Assembly: GCA_963722385.1 (NCBI GenBank)
Contig: CAVRKK010000002.1
Location: 672,001-736,000 of the forward strand
DNA: 64,000 bases
Reading direction: 5' to 3'
DNA from: an uncultured bacterium
Lineage (GTDB): Bacteria; Babelota; Babeliae; Babelales; Babelaceae
Under the pieces are notes generated by a model. That model was not told the origin of the DNA. It did no database searches and worked only from the letters and a program-made list of their open reading frames with translations. Each line of letters opens with the position of its first letter. The first letter of the stretch is position 1. Shown in pieces: positions 30,067 to 33,830 of the stretch. Position numbers and translations under genes: made by a program.

Positions 30067-31032
30067 ATGAAGCCTAAAAAACAAACGCTTTTACCCATTG
30101 AACACAACAAGCCGCCCTTTGTCGAGGCGCTTGATCAATTTTTGGCAACACTTGACGTTACACGTGGCTCAAGAGGCACCTATCGTAATGCTCTGCGCCA
30201 ATTCCTTTACTGGTTTGTAAATCAAAAAAACATGACCCCCACGCGCGAGACAATACTTATTTATAAAGAAGAGCTTGACCTCAAAGGCTTGCGTCCTGCA
30301 ACACGCGCTTGTTACCTGGTAGCCGTACGCAAATTTTTTGAGTGGACCGAGAGCCTTAAAATTTATCCTAATATCGCTAAAGGCATTAAAGGAGCACGTC
30401 GTGCACTCAAGCATCACCAAAAAGACGCTCTAACGATCCCTCAAATTAAACAAATACTTGGTTGTGCCGCTAAAGATAGTCTTGGAGGCAAACGCGACTT
30501 CGCGCTCATCAACTTACTCGTTAGAACAGGGCTCCGCCTCATAGAAATCGTACGCGCCAATTACCAAGACCTTGACCTTCAAGGAGAGGAAGCCCTTTTA
30601 TGGGTCCGCGGCAAGGGGCGCGATGGCAAAGATGACTGCGTCATACTTGCCCAAGAAGCGCTAAAGCCGCTGCTCCACTATCTGCGTGCACGGGGGCTTA
30701 AATCAGCCACCGAACCACTTTTTGCCTCACTGAGCGACCGTAATCGTGGCAAACCCTTAACCACGTATTCGCTTTCGCGTATTATTAAGGGCTACCTACG
30801 GCAAGCCGGTCTCAATACGCGTCGCATCACTGCCCATAGCCTCCGCCATACGTTCGGTGTTTTATCAATTAAGGCAGGAGCATCACTCTATGAAGTACAG
30901 CTGGCAATGCGCCATACAAACCCAGGCACGACCGAAATATATCTCGGGGATATTGAGCGACAAAAAAGGCTCGAGGGCGCACCAGAGAGGAAAGTAAGCG
31001 ACCTTTTAAGCGAAGAGGGTATTGGGGGATAG
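30067..31032 (+). CDS. XerC/D-like tyrosine recombinase
   Basis: N-terminal SAM-like domain and a full catalytic set: R (TGLRLIE), K (GKG), HxxR (HSLRH), H (MRH), Y (TEIY). Confidence 0.92.
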   Translation: MKPKKQTLLPIEHNKPPFVEALDQFLATLDVTRGSRGTYRNALRQFLYWFVNQKNMTPTRETILIYKEELDLKGLRPATRACYLVAVRKFFEWTESLKIYPNIAKGIKGARRALKHHQKDALTIPQIKQILGCAAKDSLGGKRDFALINLLVRTGLRLIEIVRANYQDLDLQGEEALLWVRGKGRDGKDDCVILAQEALKPLLHYLRARGLKSATEPLFASLSDRNRGKPLTTYSLSRIIKGYLRQAGLNTRRITAHSLRHTFGVLSIKAGASLYEVQLAMRHTNPGTTEIYLGDIERQKRLEGAPERKVSDLLSEEGIGG

Positions 31033-31088: not shown

Positions 31089-31718
31089 ATGAAGAAAGCA
31101 TTGTTTAAAAGTACTTTAGTAATATTAAGTACCGCAGCAGTCGCCACGGTTGCTTATATTAATAGTCAAGAGGCGCGATTAACAAAGCCTACATATCAAG
31201 GAGAACATATGAGGAAACAGCACGGCATTACGAAAAGCATAGAGCCAAATATTGGCATCTCAGCACAGGATCGTTCAAGCTCAAGCGCGATTTTAAATGA
31301 AGTTTTGGCGACAACGTATGTTTTATTGGTAAAAACGCAAAATTACCACTGGAACCTTGTTGGCCCTGAGTTTCATGATTATCACCTTTTGCTTGATGAT
31401 CACTATAAAAGACTGCAGGAATTTGCCGATGATATAGCTGAGCGAGTGCGTGCTGTTGGCGGGATAGCACTGGGGTCATTGCAAGAATTTTCTCAGCAAA
31501 GCAAAATTAAAGATGATAGCGGCGATGTACCAACACCACGACAAGCGATAGAGAATCTGCTCGCAGACCATGAAGCTTTGATCAGGCTTATTCGCGAAGG
31601 GATTAATATTACTGGTGAACATAATCGCGATATGGGTACGAATAATTTCTTCTGTGAGCAAATTATGAAACATGAAAAAATGGCATGGATGCTACGCTCA
31701 CTCCTTGAGAGAAAGTAG
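31089..31718 (+). CDS. dps: Dps-family DNA-protecting ferritin-like protein, with a possible N-terminal signal extension (alternative start 31209)
   Basis: KTQNYHWNLVGPEFHDYH, DDIAERVRAVGG and HEKMAWML. Confidence 0.93.
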   Translation: MKKALFKSTLVILSTAAVATVAYINSQEARLTKPTYQGEHMRKQHGITKSIEPNIGISAQDRSSSSAILNEVLATTYVLLVKTQNYHWNLVGPEFHDYHLLLDDHYKRLQEFADDIAERVRAVGGIALGSLQEFSQQSKIKDDSGDVPTPRQAIENLLADHEALIRLIREGINITGEHNRDMGTNNFFCEQIMKHEKMAWMLRSLLERK

Positions 31719-31732
31719 CGCTCCATAAAAAA

Positions 31733-31999
31733 TGGAGACGCTCTGGCATACCTCACTTATGTTCTCCATGCTTAGCCTTTACTTAGACACATACCCTCCT
31801 AAAGGCTTGATATAGCATATGCCTCGTAGTTTGATAGTTTACATGCAAGCTTGACAAGCTACGTTAACCTCACTTGCACGCCCTACTTTTTACTCACCAG
31901 CCTTTACTTGTAGGGGAGCATAACTGGCGGATTGTTTTTTTTACGAGCACATTCAAGCTCGGCATGCCCATAAGTATTAGAGAGTATGCCTACGTCTCC
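31733..31999 (-). ncRNA. tmRNA-like four-pseudoknot RNA lacking T-arm/D-loop and tag-coding domain
   Basis: Nested end pairings GGAGACG/CGUCUCC, GGCAUAC/GUAUGCC, ACUUAUG/CAUAAGU and CAUGC/GCAUG enclose four consecutive pseudoknots. tmRNA signature strings GCAUGCCGAG..CUCGUAAAAA and CUAAGCAUG are present. It has its own promoter and a downstream U-run. Confidence 0.8.
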
Positions 32000-32005
32000 A
32001 TTTTT

Positions 32006-32034
32006 AGTCTAGCATAAACGTTTCTATTTGTCAA
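32006..32034 (-). promoter_or_regulatory. strong sigma70 promoter of the tmRNA-like RNA
   Basis: TTGACA-N17-TAGACT with an extended -10 TG. The first G of the terminal stem lies 7 nt after the -10 box. Confidence 0.8.
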
Positions 32035-32042
32035 TTATAAAA

Positions 32043-33830
32043 TTAATTATTATTTTTCGCATCTTCATGATTTTTTATAACCTGCAGGCCATAATCCTTC
32101 AGCTTGGCATCACTCACCACCGTAGGTGCATCCATTAATGGCTCATGACCTGTTTGCGTTTTAGGAAATGCTATAACTTCCCGGATCGACTCACCGCCGA
32201 GCAAAAGCATGACGAATCGGTCGATGCCAAGCGCGATGCCCCCCAGAGGAGGAAATCCTAACTCGAGTGCTTCCAGCAAGAAGCCAAAGTGGGAGTGCAT
32301 GGTCGACTCATCGAAGCCTAAAAGTTTAAATACTTGTGCTTGGAGTTCTGGGCTATTGATGCGAATCGAGCCCCCGCCCAACTCGACACCGTTAAGCACT
32401 AAGTCATATGAACGAGCTTTCATGAACGCAGGGTCTTGCCTTTCCCAGCCCTCTTGTGGAGCGGTAAATGGATGGTGGGCAGAGGTCCAGCGTTTGTGGT
32501 CAGTATTCCATTCAAGAAGCGGGAAATCAGTAACCCACAAAAATGCAAGCTGGTTGGTTGGTATGAGCGTGAGCGCATGGCCTAACTGGAGGCGCAAGCG
32601 GCAAAGCTGCGTCCATGCCTCTTTATAGGGCGCAGCAATAAGAAAGAAAGTATCACCGGGCTTAAGATGCGTAAAGCGCGCTTGGAGCTGACCTATAAAC
32701 TCTGCGGGCAAGAACTTGGCAATAGGCGATTCAATTTGACCATGCTCATTAACGCGGAGCCACAGCATGCCTTTTGCGCCATTCTTGATTGCTTTTTCAA
32801 CCCAGCTTTCAAGCTCTGATCGCGTGAATGTGCTGTCTTGGACATAGAGGGCGCCTATTTTGCCACCTTTATCAAGCACGGAACGTAAAAAGCTTAACGG
32901 GGTCGAGACAAAGAGCTCTGTCACATCCTGTATCTCGAGCCCAAAGCGAATATCAGGCTTGTCGCAGCCATAACGAGCAAACGCTTCGTCATGAGTCATG
33001 CGCAATAAGGGAAGCGGTAGGTCGGTGCCAAATACTTTTTTCAATACATAATGGCACAGCCCCTCAGTGAGCGCTTGTATGTCCCCTTCCTGAATAAAAG
33101 ACATTTCTATGTCAAGCTGGGTAAACTCAGGTTGACGATCGGCGCGTAAGTCTTCATCTCGAAAGCAACGTGCTACCTGAAAGTAGCGCTCAATACCACC
33201 AGCCATTAAAATCTGCTTGTATAATTGGGGAGATTGTGGCAAAGCGTAAAAATTTCCCTTATGCATGCGTGAGGGTACCAGAAATTCACGCGCGCCCTCG
33301 GCAGTGTTTTTCGTAAGAAGAGGTGTTTCTATTTCGTAGAATCCACGATTACTCAAGAACTCCCGTATGGCAAAAATGACTTCATGCCTAATGCGCAGTC
33401 GCTCGGTCATTAATGGTCGTCGCAGATCGAGATAGCGGTATTTAAGCCGCAGCTCTTCTTCGACATGCTCAGCTTCGCTGGGGGCAAAGGGAAGCGCTTT
33501 CGCTTTATTAAGTATGGTCAGCTCATAAGCCTGAACCTCAAAAGCGCCTGTAGGCAATTCTTCGTTAATCGTTCCTGGCTTACGGTGAACAACCGTGCCT
33601 TTGATCGAGATAACATACTCAGAGCGTAGAGAATGGGCAGACTCAAATGAATCTTCGGAAAACTCTTTGCTAAAAACGAGCTGAACGATGCCGCTCCTAT
33701 CACGGAGATCAACAAAAATGAGCCCGCCATGGTCTCGGCGCTTATCAACCCAACCAACAAGCGTGACCGATTTGTTAAGGTACTGACCCGTAATCTCACC
33801 GCAAAAGCAGGTGCGTTCAAAAAATTTCAT
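32043..33830 (-). CDS. aspS: aspartate--tRNA ligase
   Basis: [43 protein letters not shown] and GIALGIDR. Confidence 0.98.

Follow-up and report, generated by a model that had tools for sequence, protein, structure and literature searches.

Is an ssrA-like gene that has kept the pseudoknot ring of tmRNA and lost both the tRNA-like arms and the tag reading frame a wreck, an assembly error or an RNA with a function of its own? The question is raised by a 267-nt unit on the minus strand of a 64,000-nucleotide stretch of DNA (hereafter the window) from an uncultured bacterium of the Babelaceae, whose genome (G000; the relatives analyzed bear other G numbers) measures 1.6 Mb and is 93% complete. 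A sequence-only reading of the window had proposed a repurposed tmRNA paralog composed of a closing stem, helix 2 and four consecutive pseudoknots (PK1-PK4). Every pairing it named, from the closing stem to PK4, was recovered in the sequence together with the 267-nt length and the final run of six U, and the absence of D-loop, tag region and T-arm was borne out by the Rfam alignment, in which they appear as deletions (Table 1). The fold of the element reaches -93.2 kcal/mol (z = -4.71), with 0/200 shuffles equally stable. A weak local hairpin over its 3' end may, according to folding prediction, compete with the closing stem, and a role in 3'-end formation may be suspected.

Table 1. Features of the ring-only locus (positions in the window)
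Feature	Position	Strand	Remarks
Dps-like gene, convergent	31089..31718	+	below NCBIfam cut-offs; PDB Dps match E 1.1e-30
Hairpin over RNA 3' end and dps stop codon	31717..31742	.	z -1.92, weak
Ring-only tmRNA paralog	31733..31999	-	from pairing, Rfam alignment and fold; 31999-31733, 267 nt, ends inferred from pairing; PK1-PK4 span 31961 to 31774
Closing stem, 3' strand	31734..31740	-	followed by A, then U6 (31732-31727); CCA not encoded
Helix 2, 3' strands	31745..31771	-	T-arm missing after 31745
SD-like AGGAGG (31800-31795) and AUG (31792), 6-codon mini-ORF MCLSKG-stop	31772..31800	-	sequestered in PK4; putative
PK4	31774..31824	-	sole pseudoknot kept in minimal G050 orthologue
PK3	31825..31880	-	covariation strongest here
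PK2	31881..31928	-	stems covary; loop-3 WCGWA motif of canonical tmRNAs absent
PK1-PK2 junction, 3 nt	31929..31931	-	resume codon, tag ORF and helix 5 deleted; same gap in 7/7 four-pseudoknot members
PK1	31932..31961	-	stem 1 strong (5 bp); stem 2 weak in G000 (3 bp, or 4/5 in the register of G003 and of the genome's own tmRNA)
Helix 2, 5' strands	31962..31990	-	only 2 nt from closing stem, D-loop analogue absent; pairs 31990-31984/31751-31745, 31975-31969/31761-31755, 31966-31962/31771-31767
Acceptor-like closing stem, 5' strand	31993..31999	-	31999-31993 pairs with 31740-31734; position 3 is A (A3-U70, not G3·U70)
Sigma70-type promoter TTGACA-N17-TAGACT	32006..32034	-	start of spacer common to G003, G118 and G050
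aspS, upstream	32043..33830	-	not a conserved neighbor

The kinship with tmRNA is unambiguous in the Rfam comparison: model RF00023 aligns with the element from end to end at 57.1 bits (E 9.2e-20), above the gathering score of 47 bits, so that an annotation pipeline would name it tmRNA. The sequence-only reading had held that a full-length match to a described Rfam family would refute its proposal; such a match exists, but the D-loop, T-arm, tag ORF and helix 5 are missing from what is matched. Homologues score lower (46.6, 35.9, 31.5 and 31.2 bits, and none for G109). ARAGORN does not call the element as a tmRNA, the permuted tmRNA models give no gathering-score match in the window, and the 6S RNA model RF00013 gives no match there.

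The element and standard tmRNA share the order helix 2, PK1-PK4 and the type of promoter, but the element has neither G3·U70, D-loop, T-arm and encoded CCA nor resume codon, tag ORF and helix 5, and it coexists with the intact ssrA-smpB system of the same genome. A T-loop or D-loop motif occurs in 0/8 members of the family. The region of resume codon, tag ORF and helix 5 is deleted in 7/7 four-pseudoknot members with no conserved frame, and the ASYAPLQVKAGE frame suggested by the sequence-only reading is not conserved among members. Position 3 is an A (A3-U70) in the five members with a clear closing stem, and a G in 116/116 ARAGORN-called tmRNAs. G3·U70 is a determinant for AlaRS, and contacts of the D-loop and T-loop are required for SmpB (PMC3968760, accessible text), while the 3' CCA is not encoded in every ssrA (PMC11915505, figure 1 legend). 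From its sequence, the element would be unfit for trans-translation as known, and both alanylation and SmpB/EF-Tu delivery are predicted to be absent. By the same evidence it derives from tmRNA yet lacks four of the features that define one, and we do not class it as a tmRNA. The statement that both arms are lacking holds in G000, but needs qualification in some homologues, since GAAA-capped hairpins occupy former arm sites in G118 and G109 (T-arm place).

The promoter match at 32034-32006 scores 10/12. The claim of a strong promoter is not sustained by this match alone, which lies within chance (3 sites versus 1.5 +/- 1.2 in shuffles), but TTGACA-17-TAnnnT-type sites also stand upstream of homologues and support the call. 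The start of the spacer is common to homologues and to some canonical ssrA promoters, so that the promoter probably came along when the gene was duplicated. There is no support for the spacer holding a regulator box of its own: the exact motif also precedes 6/104 canonical ssrA genes, and no further exact copy of it occurs in G000.

A complete ssrA exists elsewhere in G000 (168 bits, tag GETTRPAFA), adjoining smpB, and the element is thus a second gene. Its surroundings vary. The convergent arrangement with dps holds in G000, but the aspS/dps position is not conserved in relatives, and the search downstream of aspS that the sequence-only reading had advised found the element in 0/14 loci with Rfam and 0/29 with a motif scan. 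In particular, G001, of the same genus and with the same gene order, has no trace of it at the syntenic site. Neighbors differ among the carriers, G003 having an Hsp20-like gene there, which makes the element a free-standing gene. Several details of these neighborhoods were noted in passing. The aspS-dps gap of G001 (L248:10782-11091) holds several palindromic repeats in place of the RNA. A gene for an Xer-like tyrosine recombinase lies between gatB and dps (window 30067-31032); it is conserved in G001 with 74% identity and has no tie to the RNA. In G003 (L049:1753-1785), the CCUCC at the 3' end of the RNA has two alternative partners, the RNA's 5' end and the SD of the Hsp20-like gene just downstream; a coupling to that gene, in G003 only, is possible on this evidence. 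Elsewhere in G000, a 162-nt non-coding repeat occurs in two copies that are 92.6% identical (G000:C1:279360 and C1:141361, minus strand); it starts at a strong sigma70-like promoter and is possibly another small RNA.

How widely is such a gene distributed? Altogether, it was found in 7/261 genomes of the phylum, from three families, and on one metagenome contig. The phylum is probably Dependentiae (Babelota), to judge by its single order, its small genomes, ATP/ADP translocases, ankyrin-like ORFs in a relative and the account given in PMC6561590. A spacing pattern led to G003, of another genus of the same family (2/261 genomes including G000), and a covariance model built from these two led to G118, G119 and G120 (family f15) and to G109 (f10) among 151 genomes. 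A six-sequence covariance model was then applied to 260 of the 261 genomes, with scoring limited to the 14-63 best candidates in each, and gave no additional four-pseudoknot member within that scope. Among the 83 model-match loci that were checked, six belonged to known members, 76 showed a T-loop motif and one was new (G050); the matches beyond these loci either had the canonical length or fell on the coordinates of a known ssrA. The G050 orthologue, syntenic with that of G118, retains only the promoter, closing stem, helix 2 and PK4, and folds as a single rod (z -4.6). Helix 2 and the ring are thus present with four pseudoknots in 7/8 members and with PK4 alone in G050. The closing stem is eroded in G119, G120 and the metagenome member. 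All seven carrier genomes also have SmpB and a full tmRNA, that of G120 being recognized by Rfam and by eye and not by ARAGORN.

Other searches delimit the family. A 3'-end pattern matched 5/261 genomes, all known carriers (reversed control 0). A pattern scan of all genomes gave 28 matches, one of them real (G003) and the remainder ordinary tmRNAs or chance, and since this pattern fits just 2/7 carriers it says nothing on absence outside the phylum. By blastn, six of 60 relatives had matches; four lay inside the RNA and were canonical tmRNAs, the other three covering only the 3' flank. A first metagenome scan gave none and later ones three matches, two due to chance and one a member, which scores 195 bits with the covariance model. 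Viral contigs gave 0 matches in two scans, 119 in another (none of the 80 listed loci passed on scoring), three in another, all by chance, and 66 in another, which were phage tmRNAs, tmRNA ends or chance (47 with a T-loop motif, 19 judged by eye). Blastn against phages and plasmids gave no match to the element.

The same surveys brought up irregular tmRNA genes. Besides its ring-only RNA, G118 carries a pair of complete tmRNA genes separated by 2 kb (C1:795232-795599 and 797383-797822; L270), with different tags of 13 and about 30 residues. G184 has two tmRNA genes about 0.5 kb apart (L310:817-1170 and 1700-2130), and in G127 two nearly identical copies lie on different contigs (L338, L339). 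In G143, the single tmRNA that was found (C13:24518-24862; L358:1430-1860) has a D-loop and tag ORF and is without T-arm, which is either an assembly collapse or a separate lesion. On a viral contig (L387:501-563), a tmRNA 3' end is closely followed by a tmRNA 5' end, in a permuted-looking arrangement.

Whether the ring is maintained was assessed by covariation, as the sequence-only reading had advised, over 31 pairs taken from PK2, PK3 and a portion of PK4, the seven four-pseudoknot members having been aligned with plain MAFFT. In these stems 95.8% of the cells are paired, and 15/31 pairs changed on both sides. Controls slid along the alignment reach 25-48%, and 0/500 shuffles reach the observed value, a figure that is not a probability because the helices were chosen from the same sequences and four members are close kin; related sequences can also beat such a shuffle control without any structure. 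The crossing stems tested (stem 2 of PK2 and of PK3) both covary, and each member forms PK1, PK4 and helix 2b stems out of different letters. These compensatory changes extend across 0.4-0.9 substitutions per site, and the AspS of G000 is just 60% identical to that of an f15 and an f10 genome. Over the last 150 nt of the ring, identity is 0.65-0.78 among five elements versus 0.63-0.75 among the working tmRNAs of the same genomes, in a comparison of 10 pairs made with no random-alignment control. Given the strength of the covariation in PK2-PK4, neither decay nor an assembly deletion accounts for the element, which is very probably a functional non-coding RNA.

A tree was built from the seven elements and 108 tmRNAs, without G050 and eight tmRNAs of other phyla; in it the elements cluster together, modestly supported (60/94). 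Pairing of the G000 or G003 element with the tmRNA of its own genome is not rejected by AU tests (p 0.285 and 0.233). Blastn found no link between the element and the ssrA of its genome, and 11 columns are common to at least 6/7 elements and rare in tmRNAs. The shared deletion and these 11 shared derived columns favor a single origin, which is likely from the alignment. The best reading would be an old ssrA duplicate, promoter included, kept under selection as a stand-alone RNA. Its rarity (7/261) and the absence of any trace at the G001 site show that it is dispensable.

Known reduced or rearranged tmRNAs help to place the element. The TLD-only (no-CDS) tmRNAs of mycobacteriophage DS6A, mitochondria and the Mallomonadaceae plastid are likewise reduced and devoid of a tag frame, but, as far as the accessible text of PMC11915505 and PMC4131195 goes, these known reductions spare the tRNA-like domain and do away with the ring; the element, with arms dropped and ring kept, is their exact complement. 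Inhibition of host tmRNA, perhaps via SmpB titration, is reported for the DS6A-type RNA (same sources, in part), which is a precedent for a decoy made of a tmRNA fragment; unlike it, the element lies on the chromosome, and it did not turn up in the searches of viruses, phages and plasmids. The coding piece of two-piece permuted tmRNA (RF01849-RF01851) also has pseudoknots without a T-arm of its own, but the element lacks the tag ORF and holds both ends of the closing stem in a single unpermuted unit. The pseudoknots bound by bS1 (a SELEX aptamer, rpsO and the tisB standby site; PMC7708055, accessible text) similarly combine an H-type fold with A-rich linkers and are proposed to work in a like manner; those act in cis within mRNAs or are artificial aptamers, whereas the element is a free-standing gene for which binding is only predicted.

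What, then, might a ring do by itself? Our leading proposal, to which we give a little less than an even chance and in which transcription and binding are themselves inferred, is that the RNA binds bS1 or the 30S subunit outside trans-translation, as a decoy. An ssrA duplicate would have lost G3·U70, D-loop, T-arm, tag ORF and helix 5, leaving a closed rod (closing stem and helix 2) that bears the pseudoknot ring. Through its pseudoknots and A-rich linkers this RNA would bind bS1, free or on the 30S; an unfolded PK4 may offer an SD and start codon leading to a dead end of 0-5 codons. Titration of bS1 or 30S would damp or redirect translation initiation, and perhaps also limit the loading of bS1 on the real tmRNA, the inactive extracellular stage of the parasites being a possible setting. 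The proposal is favored by the affinity of bS1 for pseudoknots, by a full-length rpsA (found in G000 and G003), by the rarity among the elements of the PK2 loop-3 motif of canonical tmRNAs and by the SD-AUG of PK4. S1 is the only known tmRNA partner bound to the ring rather than to the TLD, most strongly at PK2 (PMC3968760, in part), and it binds H-type pseudoknots with nanomolar affinity (PMC7708055, in part). In PK4, GGAGG is followed within 2-5 nt by AUG in 6/8 elements versus 1/95 scorable tmRNAs (13/108 could not be scored). This AUG opens ORFs of 1-6 codons, with AUG-stop in G118 and G050, and in G000 the AGGAGG and AUG may be a start site, with short spacing. The pair is kept in the minimal G050 form with a spacing of 5 nt; over the bearers the spacing is 2-3 nt in 5/6 versus a mode of 4-5 in this genome. 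On the other side, G050 is without PK1-PK3, including PK2, the strongest S1 site reported in the text available to us, the SD-AUG is absent in G003 and G109, and four of its six bearers are close kin. A narrower version, in which bS1 would open PK4 so that the SD and a start-stop mini-ORF park the 30S in dead-end initiation during a dormant infectious stage, we hold to be unlikely. Also against the decoy, the rpsA of G109 (C2:103998-105157) appears in three matches with stops, perhaps because of frameshift errors in the assembly.

The alternatives differ in whether they make the ring a remnant, a ribosome ligand or a mere scaffold. A decaying ssrA pseudogene, a remnant of island integration or an assembly deletion would agree with the patchy distribution, the stepwise loss in G050, the eroded closing stems of three members, the sisterhood with their own tmRNA that the AU tests allow, and a XerC-like recombinase gene about 0.7 kb from the element. 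That gene is also present in G001, which lacks the RNA, and the element keeps both gene ends and lacks the T-loop used in integration, whereas genomic-island ssrA fragments lose one end, keep the T-loop and 3' end, and adjoin an integrase. Moreover, decay is contradicted by the recurrence of the deletions across genomes of three families, by compensatory changes, by the 11 shared columns and by the want of a blastn link between the G000 element and its own ssrA. As for misassembly, both deletion sites are bridged in contigs of two runs belonging to a single study, which may be the source, X1 (31703-31953) spanning that of the T-arm and X2 (31794-31987) the PK1-PK2 junction; two variant letters in X2 (one contig, depth 2) each keep pairing (A-U to G·U and G·U to G-C). 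With ssrA and smpB intact elsewhere, the repurposed paralog put forward by the sequence-only reading is upheld, and this group of explanations is largely refuted and very improbable. The hibernation role that the same reading had entertained, by docking around the 30S head like the tmRNA ring, is weakened and now seems highly improbable. It could draw on the tmRNA ring wrapping the 30S beak with PK2 touching uS3 (PMC8363625, in part), and on the pathogen of PMC6561590 (in part) being thought inactive outside its host. In E. coli, however, the ring contacts uS3 (PK2 C183-A186) and uS3-uS5 (helix 5) (PMC8363625, in part), and the deletion of helix 5 and the MLD removes most ribosome contacts and much of the circumference of the ring. 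The PK2 loop-3 motif, which Rfam alignments and E. coli numbering would place at the uS3 contact, is kept in 94/108 canonical tmRNAs versus 1/7 elements; this loss, together with that of helix 5, points away from tmRNA-like docking, and HPF is encoded in all seven carriers.

The RNA might instead be a structured mini-mRNA with helix 2 and PK4 as its core, of which the SD/AUG start-stop or a 5-6-codon ORF is translated, in a futile cycle or for the peptide. The SD-AUG enrichment, the retention in G050 of PK4 alone with AUG-stop and the AUG-stop of G118 fit this idea; we consider it quite improbable, for the SD-AUG is missing in two members, the peptides are not conserved, the spacing is mostly too short, and AUG and stop sit in strands fixed by pairing and may be by-products. 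Finally, a functional RNA could have a non-ribosomal partner or target, such as a lineage-specific RNA-binding protein, RNA polymerase (6S-like), a host factor or an mRNA reached by base-pairing, the ring supplying just folding and stability. Its terminal region is free to vary and has acquired GAAA hairpins, 6S RNA was not detected in 5/5 genomes tested, and a review calls PK2-4 folding and maturation elements (PMC3968760, in part). Yet the element itself has no 6S match and the non-carrier G001 is also without 6S, no significant complementary site occurs in its own genome (best E 1.2), and the invariant loops are the ancestral ones of tmRNA; we regard such a partner as rather unlikely. Three more specific roles were tried and discarded. 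A replacement for HPF is rejected, this factor being encoded in 246/261 genomes and in all carriers. A CsrA sponge and an RNase R decoy were dismissed as the CsrA family and RNase II/R (PF00773), respectively, were not found in 5/5 genomes that are 86-93% complete. The missing RNase II/R gene of G000, G001, G003, G118 and G109 is an observation in its own right, RNase R being a usual partner of tmRNA.

The element is real and conserved, a tmRNA derivative apparently not described before, whose function lies outside tagging. A ring-only form was not found in the literature searched, in which subscription journals are thinly covered. A catalogue of 97,179 tmRNA sequences lists standard, permuted, intron-bearing and CDS-less forms, and its curation discards candidates with large deletions of the tRNA or CDS part (PMC11915505, accessible text), so that a ring-only gene would either be removed by such filtering or receive a wrong label; one supplementary file of that source gives 0 matches for Dependentiae, Babel and no-CDS.

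If a decoy or trap role proves true, this would be a categorically new kind of RNA; with a trap in particular, a new class of bacterial regulatory RNA would have been born from tmRNA, and the tmRNA ring would have a selectable function of its own. PK2-PK4 are reported to be dispensable for tagging, and the ring has been called largely dispensable for it. Why tmRNA keeps PK2-PK4 is an open question, which a ring-only gene under purifying selection makes testable in vitro, with the aid of naturally occurring deletion forms that go down to helix 2 and PK4. For the organisms themselves, the element is a candidate regulator of translation in a little-studied phylum of intracellular parasites.
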